From: Naegleria gruberi
Lineage: Eukaryota
Strand: one strand, 5' to 3'
DNA length: 64,000 bases
Assembly (NCBI GenBank): GCA_000004985.1
Contig: GG738913.1
Part shown: positions 27,633 to 43,056 of the stretch, one piece after another
Position numbering within the stretch: the first letter of the stretch is position 1
Layout of the letters: each line of letters starts with the position of its first letter
Notes under the pieces: model-generated
Seen by the model: only the letters and a program-made list of their open reading frames with translations
Told to the model about the DNA's origin: nothing
Databases searched by the model: none
Translations under genes and position numbers: made by a program

Positions 27633-28290
27633 TTACTCTTCTAATTCTTCTAATTCTTCTAATTCACAACTCCACATTATGATGTTGTCTTTCAATATTT
27701 GTAAAAGGAGTATGGCTTCCCTATACCATTCATCACTTAAATAATCGACTTCAGGAATTGCCTTATCAAATTCTGATTGAGCCATTTCAATTGCCTTTTT
27801 CTTATCTTTCAAAACATCGCTGTAATATACAACAAGTGAAATGATCAAACTCAATCTAGTTGGATCCACAATTGAGAGACTTTTGATTGTTTCTATACCT
27901 GATTCATATGAGTTCAAACATTTTTCTTTCAATAATTCATCTTTGGCGGATTCTGGGTCAACAGTAAGAACGTGTCTATAGAAATCTCCTTTGAGTTGTG
28001 CATAGAAAACCAATTCTTGATCAGTCAATCCTTTTACTTTCAAAATTCTGTCAATCATCTCAATCAACTGTTCAGCAAGTTGATGAATTTCATTTAAAAC
28101 TTTCCTGGTAAACATGTTTGATACGTCCGAGGGATCATATTGATGAAGCTACATTATAAACAGCTCTCTTTTTCTTCATTGTCTCTGTAAAGGCCAACTT
28201 TAACAATTTTCTTTCCTCTTGTGAAGGAATAAATTCTCCCGATGATGCAAGAATTAATTCATCAAATGACTTGTACAATACAGCAGCCAT
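27633..28290 (-). CDS. 14-3-3 protein homolog; N-terminal half (28141..28290) and C-terminal half (27633..28112) cannot be joined by a canonical splice (possible pseudogene or sequence error)
   Basis: N-terminal MAAVLYKSFDELILASSGEFIPSQEERKLLKLAFTETMKKKRAVYNVASSI matches 14-3-3 helices 1-3. C-terminal ...KGDFYRHVLTV...DPTRLSLIISLVVYYSDVLKDKKKAIEMAQSEFDKAIPEVDYLSDEWYREAILLLQILKDNIIMWS matches helices 5-9. Between them lie an in-frame TGA (28135..28137) and a +1 frame change. Confidence 0.55.
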
Positions 28291-28640
28291 TTCTATTCAA
28301 CAAAACAACAATCATGTTAATCCATTATTCTCTTGTTCTTCCTTACTTCATACTTTTCAGAATCACGACAAATTAAGGCCCAAATTACATAATCTTCTCT
28401 TGAAGAGAGAGTTGGTACATCCCTTCCTTCTTGTTGTTGTTTCATTTTTTTCAAAGTTCATCCTTAACAAACAACTAAGCTACAATTAACACGAATGAAC
28501 TTTTTTTACTAAGGGAGAAATATAAAAGACTTATAAACCATTACTTTACATTTTCTTCTTGTGGAAGGAAAAAGGAAGTTGGATAGTAACAAAGGAATGT
28601 GAAAATGGAACTTGAACTTGAATGAAAAAATTGAAAAAAA

Positions 28641-29753
28641 ATGACAGATGTTCAATCTTTGATTTTGGATATTGGATCGGGATCGATAAAGGCTGGATTA
28701 CATTTTCATGATGAACCTTCATTAATTATTTCATCAATGATTGGAAGAGTGAAATATAAACCTGTCATGATGACAAATGTCAAATTGGGATATGTTGGAA
28801 ATGAAGCAATGAGGAGGAGAGGGATATTGGATATTTCGTATCCGATCAGGAGAGGAATTGTTCAAGATTGGGATGATTTGGAATTATTATTTCAATATAT
28901 ATTCGAAAGTGAATTAAAGGTGGATCCACACGAGTTTTCACTTTTTCTTTCTGATTCTCTTCTCAATCCAGATTCTAACCGAGAGAAAATGGTAGAATTA
29001 CTATTCGAAACCTTTGGCATTCCAGGGCTTTATTTCGAATATCAACCCTTGCTATCTCTATATTCGTCTGGAAGAACTTGCGGAGCTGTTTTACATTCCG
29101 GAGAGGGACTTTCTCAAATAGTTTCAATTTCTAATGGATATGTTCTTCCCCAAACTATTCGTCGACTAAATTTGGGAGGTTTTGATCTGACGGAATATTC
29201 AAGAAAATTACTAAATACGAAAGGTCATTGTTTCAAAATGAAAGCAGATTTTGAAATTGTGAGAGAATTGAAAGAGAAATGTGCAAGAATTTCACTTTCT
29301 AACGATGATTTGCAGCATATAGATTCATCTGAATTATTTTACGAATTACCTGATGGAAATCGAATAGAAATTGGAAACGAAAGATTTGAAATAGGAGAAG
29401 CCTTATTCAATCCACAATGCCTAGGAATAGATTCCATTGGAATTGACCAATTACTAATTGACTCAATACAGAAATGTGAAATTGACACTCAAAGAGACAT
29501 GTTTGGAAACATTATTCTTGATGGAGGGAATTCACGAATTCCAAACTATTCCACTCGAATAGTGAATCAAGTTGAGAAGAGTGCCTCACCATCAATGAAA
29601 GTAAGGCATGTCAACATGTCAAATGAATACTCTGAATGGATTGGAGCTGCCTTCATGATTCTCCATTCTCAAATGAATTACATGTGGTATTGCAGAGAAC
29701 ATTATGATGAATTTGGAACAAATTTTATTCATAAACATGGAGAAACATTTTAA
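28641..29753 (+). CDS. actin-family protein (divergent actin / actin-related protein)
   Basis: 370 aa. DIGSGSIKAG (the actin DNGSG motif), YVGNEAMRRRGIL, YPIRRGIVQDWDDLE, LNPDSNREKMVELLFETF, ILDGGNSRIPN. Intronless. Confidence 0.8.
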   Translation: MTDVQSLILDIGSGSIKAGLHFHDEPSLIISSMIGRVKYKPVMMTNVKLGYVGNEAMRRRGILDISYPIRRGIVQDWDDLELLFQYIFESELKVDPHEFSLFLSDSLLNPDSNREKMVELLFETFGIPGLYFEYQPLLSLYSSGRTCGAVLHSGEGLSQIVSISNGYVLPQTIRRLNLGGFDLTEYSRKLLNTKGHCFKMKADFEIVRELKEKCARISLSNDDLQHIDSSELFYELPDGNRIEIGNERFEIGEALFNPQCLGIDSIGIDQLLIDSIQKCEIDTQRDMFGNIILDGGNSRIPNYSTRIVNQVEKSASPSMKVRHVNMSNEYSEWIGAAFMILHSQMNYMWYCREHYDEFGTNFIHKHGETF

Positions 29754-29973
29754 TTTTGTTCACAAATTTTGTAATCTATATTTCAAACCAACTGTCTTTC
29801 ATATATTGAATTCATAATTCATTGTTGAAAATAATGAATGAATAATAATTATAATGATGTTCATTAAGAAGAGATTGAACTTGCATCTTCAATTCTAAAA
29901 AAAAGATCAAAAAACTTTTCATAAAGCCCGCTTTTTTTTATCCTCTTAAATTTTATATTTAATTTGAAAAAAG

Positions 29974-31332
29974 ATGGAAGCGAATGTATTTGCGGCTGGT
30001 ATGACCGATAATTATGAATATCCAGCAGTAAAGAATCCGGGTGGTAAGTAAACGAGCATCACTACAAAATTCTCAAGAAGTTTTGGCTTTTTTATGTGTG
30101 ATTGTGATCGGAATGAATTTTGATCTATTTTTGTATGATGGTGTATTATTTAAATCATGATCATGATAATTTAATTGATTTTTAATGGTGATGAAAAAAG
30201 CCTTTGTTCCTCTTGAGCCTTCATTGTTTGGATATGAAAGAATTAAACATGCTGCATGTGGATATAGAACTTCTTTCTTTCTGACCGAGTCAGATCAATT
30301 GTATTGTTGTGGGCAGAATTCATCAGGAGAGTTGGGGAATGGAACTAGTGTTGATTATGAACCTCTCTCGAAGAATAGAACTCTGATTCCACATTATGGA
30401 ACCATAGAGACAATATTAGGAGGAGATACATTTACATTCTTTATCATGAAGGGTATGTTGCTTTGTTGGCCAAGTGTTTAATGGAATTGATTGCATACAT
30501 GACGAATTTGTAAAGATGGTACTTTTTGGAGATGTGGATCTAATAATGATGGCCAACTTGGAGCTGGATCAAAAAGTAAATTATTGGTACCTGAACCGGT
30601 CAATCCTACACCTTGGGGAGCTCACAGAGTGATGAAGATTGCATTTGGATATTATCACTCTGCAGTTCTTGTTAATAATACAGTGTACATATCAGGAAAA
30701 CTTTCAGGAAGTGATACCACCCATGCATATACTAAAATTGCAGATGCAGATCAGAAAATGATTGGAGAAATTGTGGATGTTTCTTGTGGAGTTTTTAACA
30801 CAATGGTTGTAAATAGTATGTTGTTGTGAATTATTGAATTTGAGATTAATTTTCAACAACAGGAAGAGGACATTTGTATAGTATTGGTCAATCAGTTGAA
30901 AATGCTTCAACTTCAGCATGGACCAGAATGAATATTGATGCACCTGTTTCCAAGATTTTTTGTGGATCACTTTCCGGCATTGCAATAACATCACAAGATG
31001 AGGTCTATTGTTGGGGAGATAACGGCTCAGGTGAGACTGGAATTCCAAGCTCAAGAGTTTCTAATTGGACAATGAATCACGATTTGTGCTATAAGGAAAT
31101 TACCAATGTTGGTATTCACACCTATCAAACCATTATCCTTACTCGTTCAGGACAAGTACTCATTTGTGGAAATAATTCCAACAATCAATTGGGAGCAGTC
31201 ATGGAAACTAGTCAAGGTGTAAAAAGAAGTACTCAATTAGAGGAATTATGTAGGAAATTCTCAAACAAGACAGCATTTGTTACAGGAGGATTTCAACACA
31301 TGATTGTCTATTTTGCTGATGGTGGTAAGTAA
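29974..31332 (+). CDS. RCC1-like repeat protein, 4 exons: join(29974..30043,30201..30452,30516..30815,30863..31332)
   Basis: Three frame-shifted ORFs (30185.., 30584.., 30874..) carry RCC1-like motifs (CGQNSSGELGNG, CGSNNDGQLGAG, CWGDNGSGETG, CGNNSNNQLGA). They are joined by GTATGT...AG introns of 63 and 47 nt with consistent phases. The first exon (MEANVFAAGMTDNYEYPAVKNPG) and its 157-nt intron are less certain. The terminal GGK-TAA could alternatively be a donor (ggtaagtaa). Confidence 0.55.
30453..30515 (+). other. spliceosomal intron (63 nt, GTATGT...AAAG)
   Basis: FFIMK | DGTFWRCGSNNDGQLG, with phase-1 continuity. Confidence 0.65.
30816..30862 (+). other. spliceosomal intron (47 nt, GTATGT...ACAG)
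   Basis: NTMVVN | RRGHLYSIGQ, with phase-1 continuity. Confidence 0.6.
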
Positions 31333-31764
31333 TTTCATCTATTCATCTACATTTTAATCATCCATTTCAAAGCCATGTCAAAAGGAAAAACCTACATGAT
31401 TGCAATGCTTCGTCAAGCAAGTCAATCCTCAGAATTGAGTGATATTTCATTTGATTTCCTAAATACATTGTAAAAAAAATTGTAAATTTAAATATTTTTG
31501 GAATGTTACTGCTATTTATTGAATATTATTTATTAACATTTTAATTTTCGTGTTCCAATTCGCCCAATTCGAATGAGAATGGAAATTAAATTCCAAAATT
31601 GCAAATTTTCCAAAACTCAAAAAAGGCTACAAACAAAAATTTAACAAAAAAAATACCTCAACCTATTTAGCGAAGCTTTTTTTCAATTTTGAATACAACA
31701 CACGTATTATTAATACATCATCATCGTCATCATAATTTAAATTATATCGGAATAATAGTAGAAA

Positions 31765-32418
31765 ATGGAACGATCTATAATGATGGTACATGCAACCTTG
31801 TTTTGGTTGATTTTCCTTCTCTTGTCTGTGTCTAATAGTTTTCTCCGAGAATCAGTGTATGAACCTTTAGCAGGTGAATTGTGGAGTCATATATTTGCAA
31901 CATCTAGTCTTGTTTTGATTAATTTACTATTAATGTATTACTTTTTTATGCAAAAGAGAAGTTATAAAAAGCAAGCCTTGATAAAGGAGAAGAGAGAAAG
32001 AGCATCAAGTGCTGCTAATAGCAACTCCGAAGGTACATCATCCCTTACTGGCGGATTATCAAATTTAACATTGAGCAATATTTCAAATACGACGAGGAAA
32101 TTATTTTCTTTTGAAAGAAAGAGAAATATGTTCTTGATTGGTGTTTGGTGGCTCTTGTTGACCATCTTGTTTGAATTGTTTATTGGATGGATTAGAGGAG
32201 TTGATGGATTGAGTGAATCAAAGGATTATTCTTGGTTATCTTACGTTTCTGTGATGAGATGGGCAAAGAGTCATGTTGTTATTTTGATTGTTGGTGTACA
32301 ATTAATGTTCCCAATTCTTATCGGAACACTTGTTATGAGAATGGACGAAAAGGCAGAAATTGTGGACAGAGATTTGAATGAATTACAACATGCTGAACAA
32401 GAAAAGAAAACCATGTAA
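31765..32418 (+). CDS. hypothetical four-TM membrane protein
   Basis: 217 aa, ATG in A-rich context. Hydrophobic helices: LFWLIFLLLSV, SLVLINLLLMYYFF, FLIGVWWLLLTILFELFIGWI, VVILIVGVQLMFPILIGTLV. Confidence 0.45.
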   Translation: MERSIMMVHATLFWLIFLLLSVSNSFLRESVYEPLAGELWSHIFATSSLVLINLLLMYYFFMQKRSYKKQALIKEKRERASSAANSNSEGTSSLTGGLSNLTLSNISNTTRKLFSFERKRNMFLIGVWWLLLTILFELFIGWIRGVDGLSESKDYSWLSYVSVMRWAKSHVVILIVGVQLMFPILIGTLVMRMDEKAEIVDRDLNELQHAEQEKKTM

Positions 32419-32523
32419 ATAATTTGTAATATAGGATTAATTTTTATTCACTCAATAATCTATTATTATTACAAATTCTCTAAGAAGATTGGACAATCAT
32501 TACAACAGGTGAAAGGATAAGAG

Positions 32524-33219
32524 TTATTTCTTTAAGGATGGAGAATTTGATGGCGTTCTAACCTTAAATCCTAACAATTCGGCAATTTTCACAACTGCCA
32601 AAGGACTACTGTACACAGCACTGTTAACAACTGATGCAGGAATCCATCCATTGGCAGATGCTTGATTGGTGAATGAAACATGGAAGGTTTTTTCGCTCAA
32701 CTTTTCAAATTTTCTCCATGCAAAAATGTTGGTCGAACGAACAGCACCTTTTTGGAACGAGAAATCTTTTGGAGTTTCGTACAAGTCGTCAACACTTGTT
32801 GAAACGTGATTAAGAACATTTTCTTTGGTAAAGAATTTTTCCACACAAAGTAAATCTCTATCAGCAACAAAAGGAACACCTGCAGTATAACAAGTATATC
32901 TAATCTTCCACAAATCTCCACTTTCGTCCTTCCATTCTTCCAAAGTATTCGATCTGATCGATCCTTTCTGCACATGATTCGTCTTTTCCAAATCATCAGT
33001 GGAGAAATAGTCCAACAATTGCTTGGCATCATCCATTCCCTCAACAATTACATCTCCCCTGATGATTGTATTGGCATCCCCCTTGTTATCATAAATATCC
33101 ATATTCTGTTTGGTGTGATGATAGTGCATTGCATCGAGGGATGACTTGTTCTGAGCCAATTCATAGGCAGTTTTCCACTTTTCAAGGATTTTCTTCTTTG
33201 ATTCTTCGGTGAGTGGCAT
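32524..33219 (-). CDS. START / Bet v1-like (SRPBCC) lipid-binding domain protein, paralog A
   Basis: 231 aa. The C-terminal NGWIPASVVNSAVYSSPLAVVKIAELLG matches the START C-terminal GW[IL]PxS[IV][IV]N helix region. About 50% identical to 40351..41067. Confidence 0.5.
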   Translation of the reverse strand: MPLTEESKKKILEKWKTAYELAQNKSSLDAMHYHHTKQNMDIYDNKGDANTIIRGDVIVEGMDDAKQLLDYFSTDDLEKTNHVQKGSIRSNTLEEWKDESGDLWKIRYTCYTAGVPFVADRDLLCVEKFFTKENVLNHVSTSVDDLYETPKDFSFQKGAVRSTNIFAWRKFEKLSEKTFHVSFTNQASANGWIPASVVNSAVYSSPLAVVKIAELLGFKVRTPSNSPSLKK

Positions 33220-33411
33220 GGTGTTGGTTGTGAGCGGGTTTTTTTTGGTCTAGTTTTGAATTAATTGGATTCTCTTTGATCTTGTAAAAGGAGGAGTTGA
33301 ACAAGTCCTCAAGTTGAGTGTGTGGAGGACTTGATAATCCGCTAGATAAATAAACCGATTCGAAAGTTTACAATTATTTATTAGTTATGTAGAGCATGTC
33401 CACGAGACGAT

Positions 33412-35043
33412 CTATTGAATATCAATATAGGCATATTTCTTCTTCTTTCTTAAACAGAGCCAGAATCCAAGTGCAGTAAGCAAAACAGCCACCAGAACGA
33501 ATGCAGCAGCCAAACAAACTCCAATAATTACTGGAACTCTCCAATAAGGTTGAATAGAAGAGGAGAATTTGTAAGTTGAAATAGTATCATTTGAGGTTGT
33601 GTCAAAGAGGAATACCACTTGTTGGACATCACTTCCAATTTCTTTAGAAACTGCATCGCTGGAGCAGAATTTGATTGAATTGGATCCAACTTGAGCAATT
33701 TGCTTTTCAGTATAGCTTGATATTGTTGGAAGGGTTGGATTGTTAATATTGGACTTTTGTTGTAAAGCATAAATAGCTAATGGGCTACCAGAAACGGTGC
33801 CATCAAATGTAATGCAACTGTCATCGTGAGTTTGTGCAATCAAGTAAACTGGACTCGCAGAAGTAATAGATCCAGATAATTTGGTTCCATCAGCAAGTGT
33901 TGAAATGAATGGTTTTGGTGGAATTGTCTTTTTGATATTACCATAAACAATAATGAGAGAATTGTTAAAAAGGAGATTGTTTGACATATCACAAACCATC
34001 TGTCCATCATTATCAGATGATGGAATAATTGGTGAAATTACAGTTCCAAATTGATATCCACTTCCAATAGTACTTCCACAAGTTATTGAATTTGCTTGAA
34101 TTTTCACTTCGTTTCCATTAATATCCTTCATGTTATCAAATTGATACCAGAATGAGAATGTGCTTTCAAGTTTCTCCAAATAGTGAGCATCATAAAACAT
34201 GTAAGCTCTCAAAACAACAAGCTCATCTTGACTATTTTGATATCTAGTGTCAGCAATATCTTTTGGATTAACATTTGATGCAGGAGCCAGCTCAAATTGA
34301 GGAGATGCTGTTCCATCACAGATTGGTTGTTGTTTTGGGAATGCAAGAGTAATCACTCTATTCCATTGATTACCAGTTTGTAATGAGTAACTGGATGGAT
34401 AGGAAACATCAATCCACTCATTCAATGAAATTTCCTTTGGTTTTGGAGTATCGTTAGGTGAAACATCCAGATAAAATTCATTTCCACCTTCAGACAATGA
34501 AACTGCCTTTGCAAGATTCAATTCAAAACTCAATTTCCTGCAATTTCTTGTCAATTTTCCATATTCATCTCCTTGAACTGAAAGAACATGTTCCGCTTCG
34601 CCACTACCAATAATAGTTACATTCATTTGACTCACATCCCTATTGAAAATTCCATCCAATGTCATTATATCCACAAAAATCTTTTCTTGTCCAGTGAAAT
34701 TTGCATCAAATTTGAAATGTCTCAAATATGAAAATTTAGAAATTGAAAATGTAAAATTTGTATCATGATCGGTAGTAGTAGTAGGATATTCATAAAACAC
34801 TTTCATCAAATAAAAGGAAGGAAGTGGTTGATTGTAAACAAATGTAGCAGATTCCATTGTATTATTATTCAGAGGTAAACTATTCTGCTGATCAATTTGA
34901 TAGATCTTTCCCATCTCGGCAGCAATCTCCTCTCCGTTCGCCACCACCACCACAAACTGATGTGTAAAACTCAAAGCTAAAACCAAGACGCAAATCAACA
35001 AGTGGTGGGTACCAATTGCAATTCGGTGATGATGTTTACACAT
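33412..35043 (-). CDS. hypothetical type I membrane glycoprotein (signal peptide, large ectodomain, C-terminal TM + short basic tail)
   Basis: Probable ATG at 35043 (MCKHHHRIAIGTHHLLICVLVLALSFTHQ). C-terminal TM VPVIIGVCLAAAFVLVAVLLTALGFWLCL followed by RKKKKYAYIDIQ. Many N-x-S/T sites. Confidence 0.5.
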   Translation of the reverse strand: MCKHHHRIAIGTHHLLICVLVLALSFTHQFVVVVANGEEIAAEMGKIYQIDQQNSLPLNNNTMESATFVYNQPLPSFYLMKVFYEYPTTTTDHDTNFTFSISKFSYLRHFKFDANFTGQEKIFVDIMTLDGIFNRDVSQMNVTIIGSGEAEHVLSVQGDEYGKLTRNCRKLSFELNLAKAVSLSEGGNEFYLDVSPNDTPKPKEISLNEWIDVSYPSSYSLQTGNQWNRVITLAFPKQQPICDGTASPQFELAPASNVNPKDIADTRYQNSQDELVVLRAYMFYDAHYLEKLESTFSFWYQFDNMKDINGNEVKIQANSITCGSTIGSGYQFGTVISPIIPSSDNDGQMVCDMSNNLLFNNSLIIVYGNIKKTIPPKPFISTLADGTKLSGSITSASPVYLIAQTHDDSCITFDGTVSGSPLAIYALQQKSNINNPTLPTISSYTEKQIAQVGSNSIKFCSSDAVSKEIGSDVQQVVFLFDTTSNDTISTYKFSSSIQPYWRVPVIIGVCLAAAFVLVAVLLTALGFWLCLRKKKKYAYIDIQ

Positions 35044-35177
35044 TTTTTTTAGATTGTGAAATCTTGCAATTCCGCGTGCTCCTAAAATTAACCCCGCCAT
35101 TAAGGGAGCATTATTCAGAATACTAACTCCTATTAATGGAAGGTAATTGGAAGATCCAACTTTGTACAACAACAATC

Positions 35178-36989
35178 TTATTTATTGTTGTTGTTGTGGA
35201 GAGGAATGCACTGACCGTTGTTGCTTACATTGAGTGTGTTGGAGAGGAGTGGAGTGCCAATCTTGTTGGAAAGTGATGCTTGTGAAATGGAGGTGTGGAT
35301 GTGGGTTCCCTTCACCATTTTGAGAATTACGAAAGTGTCATACTTCTCTGTTGTGGTTTGGTCGCCATCCAATAGTTCAGCAAGTCCATAATATTCTGCT
35401 TCCAATTTGAAAACAGCCCAATCATACATTTTCACGCTCACGTATCCAATTTGTAAGAATTGATAAATTAATTTGAAGAATTTTGATGGTCTATCCACCA
35501 AAAATCTACCCTGTTCATCCATTCCACAATAAGATTCCAATCTATAAATTCTCTTATCAAATCCAGCACGTGCCAAAACTGTTTCGCATACAGTTAATTG
35601 AGTATCTGAAAAGACCAATGTAAAATATCCATCAATCATTCTCTTAGGGCTTGTATTGCCAGTCTTATTGGCTGTTGCTTGTTGCTGCAAATTGTTAGAG
35701 GAAATTGAATTTCTCCTAGACATGGTTGGTATTTGAATCACTGCATTTTGATACTCTTGTGTACTTCTCAATTCTCTCAATCTCTCTACGAATCTTTGAG
35801 GTCTGTCACAAAGGCAAAAGTTGGAAGCAGACAATCTTTCCCAACTTTTCAAATGACTTCTAATGTGAGCATAGTGGAAAAAGTCTGATTTCTTAACTTC
35901 CAAAATCATAATCCACAAACTAGGTACATTGGTTGTTTTTTTGAATTCCAATCGATAATGGATAGCAACTCTTGGAGCTGGTGTAATTTGGAAATTTCTG
36001 ATACAATTGTCAAACATGAGTCTAATCTTGTCTCTTTGTTTTTCAGAGAGTTTCATTCCCATGACAACACCATCATCTCGAACACCAAAAATCAAAGCAC
36101 CTCCATTAGAGTTTAAATAAGCAATCAAATACTCAGTCATTCTTTCTCCTAATTTAGCATAATCTATAACACCTGATTCTGAATTTGTTGAACTAGTAGA
36201 AGTTGCAGTGGTTGTTGGTGAAATTACAAATTGAACATGTGAATGCTCACTCACTGGTGTTTTCTCCAATGAACCAATATTTTCTGCAATGAGCTCCTTT
36301 TCAAGTTTTTGTGATTCCTCCTTATTGGTCGTCTTGAAATTGATATAATCCGAAAAGATTGTCAATTTATAATCAAGTGTATTTCCTTCATCATAATTTA
36401 ATTGTGTTCCAACAGGAAAATCTACATTCTCAATAAAGAACCAATCTTGTTGTTGTTGCTGAGTTTGAATAGAAGGTGATGGTGATACAGTTTTTACAGT
36501 TTTAATATTTAAATTATCGGTATATATAGATAATTTGGAATTTCCTCTCGAACGACCATTATTACCACTATTATCATCATCATCATCATTATTCATATTA
36601 TCACTATTTATATTATTATTATTATTACTATTATTACTATTACTATTTAATATTGTTGTTGTTGTTGTATTATGATGCATGGAAGAGGCTGATGATGGAA
36701 AATCCTTCAGCGATGAAGAAAATGGTGAAGTAATCGATCCAGTCGAAGTATTCGTATGTAAATCATCAATATCCTCATCAAAGCCTACTTTTGTATGATG
36801 ATGAGTAGTAGAAGCACCAACAACACCACTGGGAATATTAGAATTACTATTACTTTCATTGGAAAAGTAGGACCAATTAGAGTTTGTTGTTAAACTCGAA
36901 TGTTGTTCAAAATCTTCATCATCAATAATATCAGAATTGGATGATTTGTTGGTTTTTTCCTGTGGGGAAGTAGGTGGAGATTGTAACAT
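35178..36989 (-). CDS. AlbA_2 (Schlafen-like) + BTB/T1 (KCTD-like) domain protein with N/S/D-rich low-complexity N-terminus
   Basis: 603 aa. AlbA_2-type signature LNSNGGALIFGVRDDGVVMGMKL. C-terminal BTB/T1-like FTLVFSDTQLTVCETVLARAGFDKRIYRL...DEQGRFLVDRPSKFFKLIYQFLQIGYV...LEAEYYGLAELL. Poly-N/D tract encoded by an att/ttg microsatellite. Confidence 0.5.
   Translation of the reverse strand: MLQSPPTSPQEKTNKSSNSDIIDDEDFEQHSSLTTNSNWSYFSNESNSNSNIPSGVVGASTTHHHTKVGFDEDIDDLHTNTSTGSITSPFSSSLKDFPSSASSMHHNTTTTTILNSNSNNSNNNNNINSDNMNNDDDDDNSGNNGRSRGNSKLSIYTDNLNIKTVKTVSPSPSIQTQQQQQDWFFIENVDFPVGTQLNYDEGNTLDYKLTIFSDYINFKTTNKEESQKLEKELIAENIGSLEKTPVSEHSHVQFVISPTTTATSTSSTNSESGVIDYAKLGERMTEYLIAYLNSNGGALIFGVRDDGVVMGMKLSEKQRDKIRLMFDNCIRNFQITPAPRVAIHYRLEFKKTTNVPSLWIMILEVKKSDFFHYAHIRSHLKSWERLSASNFCLCDRPQRFVERLRELRSTQEYQNAVIQIPTMSRRNSISSNNLQQQATANKTGNTSPKRMIDGYFTLVFSDTQLTVCETVLARAGFDKRIYRLESYCGMDEQGRFLVDRPSKFFKLIYQFLQIGYVSVKMYDWAVFKLEAEYYGLAELLDGDQTTTEKYDTFVILKMVKGTHIHTSISQASLSNKIGTPLLSNTLNVSNNGQCIPLHNNNNK
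36611..36675. repeat. (ATT/ACT/GTT)n trinucleotide microsatellite inside the coding region, encoding the N-rich tract
   Basis: tattattattattattactattattactattactatttaatattgttgttgttgttgt, read directly. Confidence 0.7.
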
Positions 36990-37351
36990 GATGATGAATG
37001 AATTGTTTGATATATTCCTTTCTCTACTTTGATGATGAAAATTAATATATTTAATATTTAATTATATTGAGCGGAGTATGATGATGATGGCGGATAATGA
37101 AAATTTAAAATTCTTGATGAATTTTCTTGTCGGTATTTTTTCAAAGTTATTTGATTGTTGTTGAATGGGAACCAAAAAAAGGTCTTTTTCATTATCTATT
37201 TAAACTATTTAATATTATTTACTGTATAATATTAAATAGTATTACAATAAATATTACAATAAAATTGAAAAATACAAGATTCGGATGGTTGATCATGTTG
37301 TGAAAAGATATTTTGAGCATCACGGGTCAATAAATCTCAGAACAGTTTTTA

Positions 37352-40267
37352 ATGACCACGTCAGATTTCACACATCAAAAAAAATTAATAGACATGAAGA
37401 GGGGAGGATTGTTTTCGACTATTCCCTCAGTCAATACAAACACCAACAACAATACAACATCATCTTCATCTGCTCTCTATCAAAGATCCTCAATTTCGAA
37501 TAACAATTCGAATAATTTAAATGATAGAATTTCTTCACCTTCCGATAATTCGAATTTTCGACCAATTTCCACTTCTGTTGGTCAACAGCCTTTCAAGTTT
37601 AATCCATCACCAGTTTCGTCTCCAACTTCAACCTTTCCAACAACTAATTTTACTGGAAATCGGTTAAATATTTCCTTGACACATCAAGAACGAAATTCTA
37701 ATAGTAGTGGAGTTTCGTCTGGTGTTTCTTCCTCCTCTTCAATTTTACCACTAGTTTCGAATAACCCTTCTTCCATCAATAGAAAGAATGTCAACATTCC
37801 AATGAATTTTTCTCCAATTAGAGGAGCCAATAGTTTATTCCGAAAGAGTTGGAGAAATTCCAGTGGAGGTTTCTGCTGTAATTTATCCTATTTCGTATTG
37901 GGAATTATTTTCTTCATTTCCTTTCTGACTTTTATTGTTTTTGTTTATTATTCAATGAAAAAATCAAATTCTGCATCAAATTCTTTAAATTCAGGAAATT
38001 CACTTGGAGGAGATGGAATGAATACGAAACATTCCGAATCTACATTGATTCTGTCAACTGTTCAGGATTTTTTCACACGTTTGAGGACTAAGAATGATCA
38101 TAGATTGAAAAATGTGCCACTCGAGGAAGGATACAGTCAATTGTTTGAACACGAAAAGGCAGATCAGGAAACTTTGGAAAGGGCAAGTGACAAGCTCACT
38201 AAAGAAATGAAAGAGGAAATGTTAAAAGTGAAGGAATTTTATAAAAAGACTCCAATCAGTAAGGTATTTGTGGCAGTTGTGAATGATCACTCTCAAGTGA
38301 TGAGTGCTCTGATTGTGGCCAAACAGGAAAGACTTGTGCCATCCCACTTGTCTTTGCCAATTCTTCATGTGGATTCTCATTCAGGTCACAAAATAATTCA
38401 ACACTCAAAGAGTTTGCCAGTTTTGGATTTGAAAAAGAAGAAATCAATTACAGCAATTGAAAAGATGACTGATATCAATAATTTCATTTCCACAAGTCAA
38501 TATTATGATTTATTGGGAGGACACGTTGTTTGGGTTCACAATGATTGGGAAGGATCTCATTTTGCAATGCCAAGAGGTAGACATACAGCAGTTCTTGCCA
38601 AGAGATCCAATGCTAAAAAGGGAAAACCAAAGATTTGCTACAAGAATATGCGTGGAATTTTCTGGGATGGAACTGTCAGTGATTTGACATTTGAAACCAT
38701 GGTAGATGAGAATGGCAAGATTTACAAGAATGAAAAGGCAGTTTGCACAAAATCTGAAAAATTGAAAAAGCAAAAACATGTCAGATGGGATGTTTATTCG
38801 ATGGATCAAATTTCTCGATTGAATCATCAAATTTTCAACAATACTCCATATATTTTACATTTGAATGAGGATTTTTTCACTAGCACAGATCCAACGCTTG
38901 CTAGTTTACTTCCAAGGGATGAATTTGGACACTTGTTTGATATGTTAGCTAATCTCCTCTCTCCAAGTAAGATTTGCTATTCAAAGCCAATTAAAATTCC
39001 AACTAAGGAAGGAGTGGATAAGGTCTGGACCAATGAGGAACACAATAGAGAGTGGATTTCAAAGATTATCGATGAGCTCTTCTTTAAGGGATTAATTTTT
39101 GAAAAGGAGGGTACCAGAGCTCCTAGATATACATTCTATTCACCAGAAGTTTTGGAAATGTGGTGTGGTGGACCAAAAGTAGCTCTGGAAGAATTGAAAA
39201 AGATTAACAAGTTGGTTCTCATCATGTTGGACAATATTCCATTCTATACTCTCTCATTATTGAGATATGAATATGATTTTCCAACTATTCACCAAGTTTG
39301 CAATGTGAACAATTTATTTGGAGTTTGTCCTTCTGTTAGGGTAAGTTTACTTTCTAATAATTTTTCCATTAAAGACTTTTGGAACGTGTAGAGCCCAGCT
39401 CATGAATCAACTGATGTGCAAGTTACCAGAGTTTCAGATTCTTTGAAGAATGTTATCAAGAGAGAAGGTTTACCTGCCTTGATTATTCTTTCCAGAGCTA
39501 ATAGAGAGGGATTCGTCAGTGCTGATAAATTATACAAGATTGAACATTCAGCTCTCAAAGCCATTGAAAAAGGACTCTCTGCTCCAATCTTGCTTCACTA
39601 TTTGGATGGTGCCAAACCACTTTCAGAAGCACAAGAATCAAACAATCAATTGGAACAAGAATATTCCATTTTGCAACACGTTGTCGAGCAAGATATGGAT
39701 GATTTGAGCGTCTATGCACCACTCATGACTGATAGAATTGAAAAATTCAAACAAATGAAGAAATTCATCAAGTACAAGGAACTGAGAGTGATGGAATTAT
39801 TCTATGAAGGTCAAGAATTATTGAAAGAATTTGTCAATCAAGTGGAAGAAAACTTGAGATTTGAAACCCCAATTGTCAAGACTCCATATCAATCTCCAAA
39901 GACTCGTATCAAGATTTGCATCAATATGATTGGTGTTTCCAAATTAATTCCACCTTATTTGAAGTGTGTGATTCAAAGAATGAGACAAGAGAAGAGAATT
40001 AATTTCCTAATCAGTGAAAAATTAGTAGAAACTGCAGGAGAATTCAGACAAATCATCACCTCAGATATTCAAATTGCCAAAATCAGTAATCAAGTGAAGG
40101 AGGACAAGTTTATTTTATTGATGGATATAGGATGTGACAATATTCACAAAGTTTTAGTTCAAACCGAAAGAGGACTCAACAAGTATTTCAGTTCCATGCA
40201 AACCAATGTGGATGGTAAATTAATTCATGACATTATGCAAACTCATTCCAAGAGTTGTAGAAAATAA
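37352..40267 (+). CDS. hypothetical type II (N-in, single TM) membrane protein, 2 exons: join(37352..39340,39392..40267)
   Basis: S/N-rich N-terminus, then TM FVLGIIFFISFLTFIVFVYY, then a large lumenal domain. ORF 1 ends ...GVCPSVR followed by gtaagt. The downstream frame is open from 39392 with no ATG until about 39690, which argues that it is a continuing exon. A 51-nt intron gives phase-0 continuity. Confidence 0.5.
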
Positions 40268-40350
40268 CGAATTGAAATCAATCAATATACAATTATGGAG
40301 TTTAATATAATTTATTCGAAATATATTTACAAAAATATATAAAGCAACAA

Positions 40351-41067
40351 TTACTTCTTCAAAGATGGTGAATTAGTTGGCACTCTGACCTTCTTTCCTA
40401 AAAAATCAGCAACTTTGACCATAGTTAATGGAACTGGATAAATTGCTGAATTGACAACTGCTACTGGAATCCATCCATTAGGTTTTGCTTGATTGGCATA
40501 GGTCACTAAATATGATTTTTCTGAGATTTTCTCATAACGTTGAGCAACGAAAATGTTTGTAGCTCTGACAGCTCCCTTTTGTGGTTTGAAATCTGAAGGA
40601 GGTTCATAAATTTCATCACAACTGGTTGACACAAAGTAATCAACATTATCCCTCGTAAAGAATTTGACAACATAAATGAAATCTCTATCAGAAACAAATG
40701 GAGCTCCAGCAGAAATGCAATAATAACAAATTCTCCACTTGGATCCATCATCATCTTTCCATTCTTCCAATAAATCAACTCTCTTTGAATTGGGATCCAA
40801 TTTTGTGGCAATATTCATGTCCAAAGAAGTGAAATATTCAATAAATTCGTTTGAATTTTCCAAATCATCAACAATGACATCTCCTCTAATGACTGTAGTT
40901 GAATCCCCCTTCAATTCATAAACATCAACCAATTGTTTAGTGTGATGATATTTCATTTCACCATTTTCGCTATCGATGGCTTTTTGGCTGGTCAATTTAT
41001 CAGCAATTTCAAAAGCTTGTTGCCATTTTTCAACGACTTTTTGTTTGATCGACTCGGAGAGAACCAT
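40351..41067 (-). CDS. START / Bet v1-like (SRPBCC) lipid-binding domain protein, paralog B
   Basis: 238 aa. Ends PNGWIPVAVVNSAIYPVPLTMVKVADFLGKKVRVPTNSPSLKK. Clear paralog of 32524..33219; both end in NSPSLKK. Confidence 0.5.
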   Translation of the reverse strand: MVLSESIKQKVVEKWQQAFEIADKLTSQKAIDSENGEMKYHHTKQLVDVYELKGDSTTVIRGDVIVDDLENSNEFIEYFTSLDMNIATKLDPNSKRVDLLEEWKDDDGSKWRICYYCISAGAPFVSDRDFIYVVKFFTRDNVDYFVSTSCDEIYEPPSDFKPQKGAVRATNIFVAQRYEKISEKSYLVTYANQAKPNGWIPVAVVNSAIYPVPLTMVKVADFLGKKVRVPTNSPSLKK

Positions 41068-41847
41068 TTTCTATTTCTGCACGTGATGAGTTATTGGAGG
41101 TGAATTAGGAATCAGCAAGGGAGCGGTTGATTTGTTTTTCCTATTTTTTTTTAAATTTTTTTTATTTCAGATTGGTGATTGAGAATCATCAATTACCAAT
41201 TCATTATGACTTGTCGCATCAGTCGCAATATCAAGCAGAGGACTAGGAGCAGTTCCTCCCCTTTATGGAATATAAATGGTTATGGATGACGATTTCTGAA
41301 ATCAAATTTATGTTTCATAATAGCATTGAATGAATGCATCAAAATCCGTGTTTCCATACATTGGAATATTATGAAACATAAATTTGACATTTCCACAAGC
41401 ACTCATTCTTGAATGTTTTCCTCGATGATGACAATTTTACAATTCCCTTCTTTTCTGAACATTTAATTGACGGAGGTGATTTTGCATTTCTTACAAATCT
41501 TGTTTCATTCAATTTTAAATATGAACATTCCACAACTGCTGTTTGGGTTACTCATGGAGTGTTAGATCTGAATTGAACATTATCCAAACAATATTTCACT
41601 TTTTTCGAAGTAAGACAAGTGTCCTTTCTTAATCAATATTTAATTTATTAAATTGAAATATTTTCAACAACATGCATTATGAAAAAATCAGTTTAATGAA
41701 TTCCAATTTCGGGCGTTTCAGCAAATAATCTCTAGTTTATTTAAACAATAATTGGACTAATTCATTCTGACTTGAAGAGGATCAAAACTCTCATATATTA
41801 ATTTCGATCAAATTGATTTAATCACATATAATTCGATGGACTAATCA

Positions 41848-43056
41848 TTAAAGATTTAGAATCACATCGATATCTTGATATATTTCCCTAATATGTTGTT
41901 TTACTTCAACACTTACATCATTATCACAAAGATAAAGATATTCTAATTCTTTCATAGTTGAAATATGTTTAGCTCCTTCATTGCCTAATGAATTCGTGTG
42001 AATTTCGAGTTCAGTTAGTTGATTCATTTGACTAATATATTTGGCTCCTTCAGCATCAACATTATTACCGCTTATATCCAGCAGGTTTAAATTTTGCAGT
42101 TGACTAATGTATTTACATGCGTTAGTCTGAATAGAATTATCTTCAATGTAAAGTTCTGTTAATTGATTCAATTGACCAAAGTTTTCAAAATTTACTCGAT
42201 CAGTAATCTCATTCGAGCCAATATTTAAAATTGTGAGCTGTTTCATTTCGCTTATATATTTAGCTCCTTCATCTCCAATAAAATTGTCATTAATATTAAG
42301 ATTGATCAACTGCTTCATTTCACTTATATGTTTAGCTCCTTCAGCACCAAATTCATTTCTAACAGTTTCAAGTTCTGTTAAATTGGTCAGTTTAATCAAG
42401 TGCGCAGCTCCTTCCTCATCAATATTGTTTGATGATATCACAAGACTCGTTAGTTGTTTCAGTTCACTAATATATAGAGCTCCATTACTTCTAATATCAT
42501 TCTTACTGATATCAAGATACGTTAATTTCTCTAGTTTACCTATATATTTTGCTCCTTCTTCCTCAATGTTGTTTGAACTAATATTAAGAAGTGTCAACTG
42601 TTTCAATGCACTAATGTGTTTGGCTCCATCGTTTTCAATATTGTTCCTACTAATGTACAGTGTAGTTAATGATTTACTCATCAAGTCAAATACTCCACAA
42701 TTAAACACAACACCTTTGATCCGAAAGTTCACTGACAATGTTTCAATATTTTGTAAAAATTCACCATTCAATTTCACATTGTTTTTACATTTCATATGTA
42801 ATTTCAATCTTTCCAAAATGACATTCAACCACTGTTTTGAAACCAATGCACAATTCATCACAATAAATTTAAAATTACCGGAATAATAATGTAAAACTTC
42901 ATAAATTACATCATCGGGAAGGATGTAATTTTGTTCTTTTAATTTTTTCTTTTTTAATTCTGATTCGGAATTATTTAGCTGATCATTAATAGCATCATCA
43001 TTGTTGAATATTGATTGATCCGACAAGTAACAACCTTCTCTTGCTCGTTTGCTCAT
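41848..43056 (-). CDS. F-box-like / LRR protein, paralog C
   Basis: Preferred ATG at 43056 (MSKRAREGC, A-rich context; it matches the M-x-KR-x-R starts of the paralogs). FKFIVMNCALVSKQWLNVILERLKL. About 13 RNI-type LRRs (LTLLNISSNNIEEEGAKYIGKLEK...). Confidence 0.65.
   Translation of the reverse strand: MSKRAREGCYLSDQSIFNNDDAINDQLNNSESELKKKKLKEQNYILPDDVIYEVLHYYSGNFKFIVMNCALVSKQWLNVILERLKLHMKCKNNVKLNGEFLQNIETLSVNFRIKGVVFNCGVFDLMSKSLTTLYISRNNIENDGAKHISALKQLTLLNISSNNIEEEGAKYIGKLEKLTYLDISKNDIRSNGALYISELKQLTSLVISSNNIDEEGAAHLIKLTNLTELETVRNEFGAEGAKHISEMKQLINLNINDNFIGDEGAKYISEMKQLTILNIGSNEITDRVNFENFGQLNQLTELYIEDNSIQTNACKYISQLQNLNLLDISGNNVDAEGAKYISQMNQLTELEIHTNSLGNEGAKHISTMKELEYLYLCDNDVSVEVKQHIREIYQDIDVILNL

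Follow-up and report, generated by a model that had tools for sequence, protein, structure and literature searches.

What might a protein do that joins a Schlafen-like nuclease-type domain to an oligomerization domain of the KCTD type? The question is raised by a single open reading frame (ORF) on the minus strand of a 64,000-nucleotide (nt) stretch of Naegleria gruberi DNA (contig GG738913.1), here called "the window", which is AT-rich (29–38% GC) and eukaryotic. The ORF is intact and uninterrupted, and its product of 603 amino acids (aa) carries an AlbA_2 domain followed by a BTB domain. Each domain is already well known; what is novel is the Schlafen-like AlbA_2 nuclease-type domain with a new oligomerization partner. 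Here, we identify the two domains, describe the AlbA_2 fold and the conservation of its catalytic positions, and trace a fusion that is conserved within, and restricted to, one family. From these, we infer nuclease activity, an RNA substrate, an oligomeric state, and a biological role; the whole functional account is a prediction from domain architecture.

By exact look-up, the gene is N. gruberi NAEGRDRAFT_59651 (XP_002670686.1, EFC37942.1, UniProt D2VZ72). An original prediction, made by a model that saw only the letters, had proposed a fusion of AlbA_2 and BTB domains in an uncharacterized protein. Both proposals hold: the two domains lie in one intact ORF, with their order kept in orthologues, and the databases offer only generic names for the AlbA_2-BTB protein, i.e., "predicted protein" or "Schlafen AlbA-2 domain-containing protein". 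The pair of AlbA_2 and BTB_2 is already visible in automatic annotations of Naegleria proteins, and we found no paper in the literature on NAEGRDRAFT_59651 or on the AlbA_2-BTB architecture. The features on which the argument turns are the following.

35178..36989, minus strand: complete ORF, 603 aa plus stop (ORF list and sequence), colinear with orthologues of 546–574 aa
35754..36443, minus strand: Schlafen/AlbA_2 nuclease-type domain, aa 183–412, complete but split by an insert
36372..36389, minus strand: E201-x4-D206-Y-K208 motif (DEGNTLDYK), acids 1 and 2 of the SLFN-type catalytic site (alignment)
36171..36344, minus strand: family-specific 58-aa insert, aa 216–273, a predicted helix and then an S/T-rich disordered stretch (alignment A4, Pfam, model confidence)
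36030..36077, minus strand: span from D305 (GVRDDG) to D320 (KQRDKIR), catalytic acid 3 and a conserved fourth acid (alignment)
35355..35633, minus strand: T1/KCTD-type BTB domain (BTB_2), aa 453–545 (Pfam, PDB profile, hhalign)

A SCHLAFEN-LIKE AlbA_2 DOMAIN

The Pfam-A family SLFN_AlbA_2 (PF04326) matches aa 282–372 with 39.8 bits (E 7.6e-10; cut-off 25.3 bits), and orthologues score 38.5–47.9 bits. The peptide that had been quoted as the AlbA_2/Schlafen-core signature, GGALIFGVRDDGVVMGMKL, is found at aa 296–314 (nt 36104..36048), and this identification stands. In the intact sequence, the match does not start until profile position 19, because the domain is interrupted: the 58-aa insert parts the strand DEGNTLDYK (aa 200–208) from the remainder. 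When the insert was deleted in silico, the match ran from profile position 1 (at E201) through position 97, with 46.2 bits. The insert is absent from all 32 outgroup AlbA_2 domains in alignment A4, an AlbA_2-only alignment of 38 sequences, and it is only 17–29% identical in distant orthologues. An earlier mixed MAFFT alignment (A3), which combined the core with single-domain AlbA_2 and BTB homologues, misplaced the C-terminal halves of AlbA_2 domains onto the BTB domain and was replaced by A4.

An AlphaFold2 (AF2) model of aa 178–425, built from the 38-sequence alignment, has a mean predicted local distance difference test score (pLDDT) of 78.3 and a predicted template modeling score (pTM) of 0.70. 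Confidence exceeds 90 in the core and is low only in the insert (37–74). The first 32 Foldseek matches to this model are all SLFN, SAMD9, or DIP2311 structures, the best being a SAMD9 domain crystallized with DNA. A profile of the family and its relatives finds SLFN14 (E 3.8e-24) and rat Slfn13 (E 1.2e-22) in the PDB. As modeled, the domain has the AlbA_2 alpha/beta fold of the SLFN C-lobe, SAMD9, and DIP2311.

The protein is Schlafen-like rather than a Schlafen proper. It has a single Pfam AlbA_2 stretch, the PDB alignments span the SLFN C-lobe region only (approximately residues 177–345 of SLFN chains), and 603 aa leave no room for a second lobe. By contrast, the vertebrate proteins SLFN5/11/12/13/14 have two AlbA_2-like lobes per chain, together with linker and helicase domains through which they dimerize; the Naegleria protein has one lobe, and BTB_2 in place of the rest.

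Three further candidates in the protein were rejected. A match to DUF5733 (E 0.11) lies under the cut-off, and matches to engineered I-CreI variants at aa 175–254 (E 0.04–0.13) are not significant. A potential zinc site, C329/H372/H375/C392, is invariant in five full-length orthologues, but the fragment P0006 has S, H, I, and S at these positions.

THE ACIDIC SITE

The motif E201-x4-D206-Y-K208 aligns with E-x4-E-F-K in 32 relatives (A4). These columns pair with TESTHVEFK of SLFN14, and a deposited mutant chain reads TESTHVAFK (E211A), which identifies the second glutamate as E211; the first aligns with SLFN14 E206. D305 aligns with the aspartate of GVDD or GVHD in SLFN14, Slfn13, and SLFN5, the pairing in SLFN14 being with the second Asp of GVDD. 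Every one of the 38 sequences in A4 has this residue, and the D320 column is at least 90% conserved. The three to four acids expected of such a site (E-x4-E/D, then D and a further acid) are thus supplied by E201, D206, D305, and D320, as read from alignment columns rather than from model geometry, and all four are invariant in five orthologues.

Among the 38 aligned sequences, the change from E to D at the second position is specific to the family. Elsewhere, the E-x4-D form occurs in working enzymes. CbCash requires E17/D22 for tRNA cleavage, the E17Q/D22N double mutant having lost it (PMC13462974), and the active site of Avs9 (E14/D19/D45/E65) has the same form, with D45N abolishing toxicity (PMC12680541). 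The AlbA_2 domain therefore looks catalytically competent, beyond mere nucleic-acid binding. The original prediction had described AlbA_2 as a nucleic-acid-binding module, which understates the case: the acids that are catalytic in SLFN11/13/14, SAMD9, Avs9, and CbCash (PMC12680541, PMC13462974) are kept here.

A BTB DOMAIN OF THE T1/KCTD TYPE

The Pfam-A family BTB_2 (PF02214) matches aa 489–539 above its cut-off (E 1.6e-5; 25.6 bits, cut-off 21.4) but over profile positions 37–89 only. The isolated C-terminal part scores 27.9 bits, and all orthologues score at least 21.5 bits. A T1/BTB-like domain had been predicted at the C-terminus, and the peptides quoted for it do lie within aa 453–545. 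When the family BTB (alignment A5) was compared with KCTD-like BTB domains (A6) using hhalign, the probability was 98.2% (E 5.4e-14) over 88 columns, from beta1 to alpha5, so the match extends over the whole domain. The core profile matches the solved chains of KCTD9 (E 4.1e-4) and KCTD5 (E 1.1e-3), and the closest solved BTB relatives are KCTD9, KCTD5, KCTD17, and the BACURD proteins.

Like KCTD proteins and the T1 domains of Kv channels, the Naegleria protein has a full-length BTB_2 domain with the core GRFxxDRxxxxFxxIxxFLxxG and an EAxFYGL helix. It differs from KCTDs in three respects: (i) the near-invariant LNVGG of the beta1 region is replaced by LVFSD in the Naegleria family; (ii) KCTD-type adaptors for cullin-3 (Cul3) have an N-terminal BTB and then a substrate-binding domain, whereas here the order is reversed, with AlbA_2 (aa 183–412) first and BTB (aa 453–545) second; (iii) the BTB is paired with a nuclease fold, which is seen in no KCTD. 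The original prediction had also taken a KCTD-type BTB to mean a Cul3 adaptor. This rule is unsafe, since only some KCTDs bind Cul3 (PMC4431850) and binders cannot be distinguished from non-binders by sequence (PMC4431850, PMC10856315). AlphaFold-Multimer predictions have told the two groups of KCTDs apart (PMC10856315).

CONSERVATION AND DISTRIBUTION OF THE FUSION

The same domain order is found in N. lovaniensis (C9374_003841; 546 aa, 69% identity), N. fowleri (FDP41_011365; 561/579 aa, 67%), Willaertia magna (ABK040_007401; 574 aa, 52%), and a 749-aa protein, P0004, from assembly GCA_037189345.1 (41% identity overall). Both Pfam domains pass their cut-offs in all four of these full-length orthologues. 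A Logan contig (L002, SRR20718583) encodes AlbA_2 and then BTB by tblastn, a Joint Genome Institute metagenome contig recovered in a metagenome scan (L005) runs from AlbA_2 through BTB in one frame, and three further members are fragments (P0006, P0007, and P0009).

Conservation is concentrated in the two domains. The AlbA_2 segment after the insert (aa 274–412) is 87% identical to N. lovaniensis and 63% to P0004, and the BTB domain (aa 453–545) is 75% and 40% identical, respectively. Because identity to N. lovaniensis is so much higher in AlbA_2 and BTB than in the N-terminus (15%), the comparison points to purifying selection acting on the two domains and on their being linked, from Naegleria to Willaertia and more distant members.

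How widespread is the fusion? Word-indexed homology searches, even with a profile, returned four to five members of the family; the remainder needed an exhaustive search of representatives. When the core profile was run with HMMER against 1.84 billion cluster representatives, there were 429 matches at E ≤ 1e-3. Among the 150 of these that are listed, 117 match the AlbA_2 part only and 26 the BTB part only, and no second family with both domains is present. BTB_2 is missing from all 117 of the nearest AlbA_2 representatives. Viral contigs were scanned without yielding any relative, and there are no paralogues within the window. The fusion is therefore conserved and lineage-restricted, with all named members belonging to the vahlkampfiid Heterolobosea.

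RELATIVES OF THE NUCLEASE-TYPE DOMAIN

In the profile search, the nearest AlbA_2-only relatives include animal proteins named "schlafen-like protein 1", from a fish (Salvelinus), a frog (Discoglossus), and a starfish (Patiria), together with proteins of the Amoebozoa Cavostelium and Mastigamoeba and of the foraminifer Nonionella. They share with the Naegleria family the signature AFLNSxGGxLxFGVxDDGxVxGxxLxxxxRDxxRL. We refer to them as the SLFNL1-like clade by similarity rather than by phylogeny, i.e., the named nearest matches are SLFNL1 and the consensus is common. SLFNL1-like proteins resemble the Naegleria protein in having a single AlbA_2 lobe with its catalytic acids; they differ in having E-x4-E where the Naegleria family has E-x4-D, and in lacking both the 58-aa insert and BTB_2. 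SLFNL1 is ancestral in jawed vertebrates, keeps its catalytic residues, and is uncharacterized in function (bioRxiv 10.1101/2024.01.12.575368).

The domains that accompany AlbA_2 in the 117 nearest representatives fall into a few types. ATPases of the STAND class (signal transduction, with numerous domains) are represented by AAA_16 (four cases), NB-ARC (two), and NACHT (one), with AlbA_2 at the N-terminal "effector" position. RNA-binding partners are CSD (two), RRM, CCCH, and Dicer_dimer, and ubiquitin-related partners are U-box (two), UBA (two), WWE (one), and XAF1_C. There is also a PemK toxin. This pattern points to an RNA substrate and to deployment of a conflict or immunity type.

Two observations on these relatives stand apart from the Naegleria protein. 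SLFNL1-like AlbA_2 domains occur with NB-ARC/NACHT (in Cavostelium, Mastigamoeba, and a metagenomic protein), with U-box, and with UBA, CSD, and XAF1_C (P0024, P0034, P0052, P0068, and P0079), which suggests that protist NLR-like and ubiquitin-linked proteins have repeatedly drawn on this clade for an effector module. A 2337-aa protein from the search of representatives, on a 401-kb contig (P0008, NCBI) has approximately 23 tandem AlbA_2 stretches (Pfam, 510 bits), an unusual poly-AlbA_2 architecture.

A PROPOSED ASSEMBLY-DEPENDENT RIBONUCLEASE

With moderate confidence, we read the protein as a soluble Schlafen/SAMD9-type endoribonuclease whose BTB domain serves mainly for homo-oligomerization. 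The enzyme would be divalent-metal dependent, with a single AlbA_2 lobe and an intact acidic site (E201/D206/D305 plus D320). The C-terminal BTB domain would assemble a homo-tetramer or homo-pentamer, and this assembly would gather the single-lobed nuclease domains into a multi-lobe RNA-binding channel of the kind that cuts tRNA in dimers of two-lobed mammalian SLFNs, in SLFN-pAgo tetramers, and in CbCash filaments. The likely substrate would be tRNA or another structured RNA, and the likely role, RNA cleavage triggered by stress or infection, or RNA processing. The disordered N-terminus, the 58-aa insert, and a conserved RRNS linker are candidate regulatory elements.

Nucleases of the Schlafen/SAMD9 AlbA_2 type are by now regarded as immune effectors common to prokaryotes and animals. 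To our knowledge, oligomerization controls all SLFN-type nucleases studied so far; SLFN11, for example, forms a dimer that clamps one tRNA. BTB_2/T1 domains are primarily tetramerization or pentamerization modules. On the most economical reading, the BTB domain would bring several single-lobed nuclease domains into an oligomer that is active or can be regulated. Activation of an effector by oligomerization is favored, in addition, because the nearest AlbA_2 relatives lie N-terminal to NB-ARC/NACHT STAND ATPases.

Several known systems offer points of comparison. In SAMD9 and Avs9, the same lobe is joined to STAND oligomerizers (PMC12680541). SAMD9/SAMD9L and bacterial Avs9 combine a STAND NTPase oligomerizer with sensor repeats, whereas the Naegleria protein has a small BTB_2 of constitutive type and no sensor domain recognizable in the Pfam-A scan. 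The prokaryotic CbCash and SLFN-pAgo proteins share more with it: each is a single AlbA_2 nuclease in which higher-order assembly switches tRNA cleavage, and CbCash has the E-x4-D form as well (PMC13462974). CbCash passes from an inactive dodecamer to active filaments (PMC13462974), and tetramerization of SLFN-pAgo "reconstitutes the canonical SLFN nuclease architecture" (bioRxiv 10.64898/2026.05.29.728809). Their assembly depends on Csx15/cA4 or GHKL/ATP sensors within defense systems; the Naegleria protein has neither a sensor nor a defense-island context.

Five points weigh against the proposed ribonuclease. First, intact catalytic residues do not guarantee activity, and some Schlafens have non-nuclease functions. 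Second, the 58-aa insert separates the catalytic strand from the first helix. Third, the BTB domain was never modeled confidently: the sole AF2 run that included it, on the whole core (aa 178–545; five sequences), gave a pLDDT of 39 and a pTM of 0.36 and was discarded. Fourth, the profile-profile scores are somewhat circular, as the outgroup alignments were drawn from matches to the family profile. Fifth, BTB_2 could equally recruit Cul3, and the two roles would be compatible.

If the ribonuclease reading is true, the protein would offer a small, naturally occurring case of such control in a deep-branching lineage of eukaryotes, one to which the pathogen N. fowleri belongs, with the well-understood T1/KCTD BTB as oligomerizer. 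A construct of ~370 aa would suit the question of whether enforced oligomerization suffices to activate a single-lobed Schlafen-like nuclease. The fusion also adds to the partner catalogue of the poorly understood SLFNL1-like clade.

OTHER POSSIBLE FUNCTIONS

Could the protein instead be a Cul3 substrate adaptor? BTB_2 would then dock Cul3, and AlbA_2 would bring nucleic-acid-bound targets, or the nuclease itself, for ubiquitination. Several of the closest solved BTB proteins (KCTD9, KCTD5, KCTD17, and BACURDs) are adaptors of cullin-3 RING ligases, and the U-box, UBA, and WWE domains found with related AlbA_2 domains are a weak precedent for a link between nuclease and ubiquitin. Yet not every KCTD binds Cul3. 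KCTD-type adaptors bind it through the alpha2-beta3 loop and the alpha4-alpha5 hairpin; binding depends on that loop, which is variable, and overall similarity does not predict it (PMC4431850, PMC10856315). The reversed domain order and the LVFSD in place of LNVGG also speak against an adaptor, and a pure recruitment module would not need invariant catalytic residues. We consider this reading unlikely.

A more elaborate form of the ribonuclease reading would make the protein a self-contained innate-immunity-style effector of heterolobosean amoebae. A tetramer or pentamer of the T1/KCTD BTB would turn a Schlafen/SAMD9-type tRNA nuclease on or off, phosphorylation of the conserved RRNS linker or turnover through Cul3 might gate the switch, and the nuclease would shut down translation on stress or giant-virus infection. 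In that case, it would be a third independent eukaryotic coupling of an AlbA_2 nuclease to an oligomerization switch, besides STAND NTPases and SLFN helicase/dimer modules. Taken with all its parts, this scenario is speculative, and we would put it slightly below the adaptor in probability.

A third possibility is a non-catalytic, oligomeric DNA or RNA binder acting in transcription or chromatin, like the KCTD1/15 repressors, the bacterial "transcriptional regulators" that join AlbA_2 to a helix-turn-helix (HTH), or SAMD9 and SLFN5 in their DNA-binding mode. The DNA in the best-matching SAMD9 structure is suggestive in this respect, as are some neighboring metagenomic AlbA_2 proteins annotated as HTH regulators; KCTD1 is reported to be an atypical member, serving as a repressor of transcription and not as a ligase (PMC7618933). 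A binder is nonetheless improbable: E201, D206, D305, and D320 are strictly invariant from Naegleria to P0004, at only 41% identity overall, and the Pfam-A scan found no HTH or other DNA-reading domain.

THE PUBLIC GENE MODEL

The ORF is identical to the first 590 residues of the public model (P0005; XP_002670686.1/D2VZ72), which is 1112 aa long. In that model, 35216 is spliced to 34976, with a predicted 239-nt intron at 35215..34977 on the minus strand. The splice takes out the stop codon in frame (35178..35180) as well as the beginning of the next ORF downstream (33412..35175), with its ATG. In that ORF, a hydrophobic, signal-peptide-like stretch (MCKHHHRIAIGTHHLLICVLVLALSF) comes after the ATG, and a transmembrane helix lies at the C-terminus.

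The public model probably fuses the AlbA_2-BTB gene wrongly to the next gene, the two being separate. We take the 603-aa ORF to be the real product because orthologues (546–574 aa) stop 15–20 residues past the LNVxN motif, as does the unspliced ORF; because the downstream gene is not adjacent to the orthologue in N. lovaniensis or W. magna; and because the downstream ORF has its own ATG and signal-peptide-like stretch. Were the public model correct, AlbA_2-BTB would form the N-terminal, cytosolic portion of a longer chain that closes with a transmembrane helix. This arrangement is exactly what XP_002670686.1 describes, and the GT..AG ends of the intron allow it, but it is very improbable given that the intron deletes both stop and ATG and that the signal-peptide-like stretch would end up midway along the fused protein. 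The reference proteome of N. gruberi thus probably contains a mis-annotation at this gene.

REGIONS OUTSIDE THE TWO DOMAINS

The remaining features of the ORF are variable.

36459..36989, minus strand: N-terminal low-complexity, presumably disordered region, aa 1–177, S/N/T/D-rich and unconserved (composition; identity to orthologues)
36558..36647, minus strand: imperfect trinucleotide tract of AAT/GAT codons, N/D run at approximately aa 115–144 (Tandem Repeats Finder)
35634..35753, minus strand: S/N-rich linker, aa 413–452 (alignment A1)
35700..35723, minus strand: linker motif MSRRNSIS, aa 423–430 (alignment A1)
35178..35354, minus strand: poorly conserved C-terminal tail, aa 546–603, and TAA stop (alignment, region identity)

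The N-terminal region consists of 20% S, 16% N, 11% T, and 9% D and is just 15–21% identical to orthologues. The original prediction had attributed it to a trinucleotide microsatellite. A low-complexity region and a period-3 array do exist (30 copies, 72% matches; ATT on the plus strand, hence AAT/Asn on the coding strand), but the tract is imperfect and accounts for only ~30 of the 177 N-terminal codons, about a sixth of the region.

The linker is 60–62% identical within Naegleria and 2% identical to P0004. MSRRNSIS is common to the three Naegleria species, and RRNSI is also present in Willaertia, while the rest of the linker is variable. The R-R-x-S within it resembles a site for basophilic kinases and, as a phosphosite situated between nuclease and BTB, may have a regulatory role.

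GENOMIC NEIGHBORHOOD

When positions 28000..43000 of the window were compared with the N. lovaniensis (L003) and W. magna (L004) loci, no conservation of gene order was detected around the orthologues, and the flanking ORFs 33412..35175, 32524..33219, and 37352..39391 had no tblastn match within 6 kb on either side of either orthologue. Neighbors in the window are functionally unrelated: actin, a leucine-rich-repeat protein, and unknowns. The divergent neighbor at 37352..39391 on the plus strand encodes 679 aa with an S/N-rich N-terminus and a sub-threshold UPF0489 match (22.8 bits; cut-off 27). The two divergent start codons are separated by ~360 bp of AT-rich DNA, with short tandem repeats at 37042..37263. 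The actin gene, at 28641..29753 on the plus strand, is intron-less and otherwise ordinary (Pfam Actin, 294 bits).

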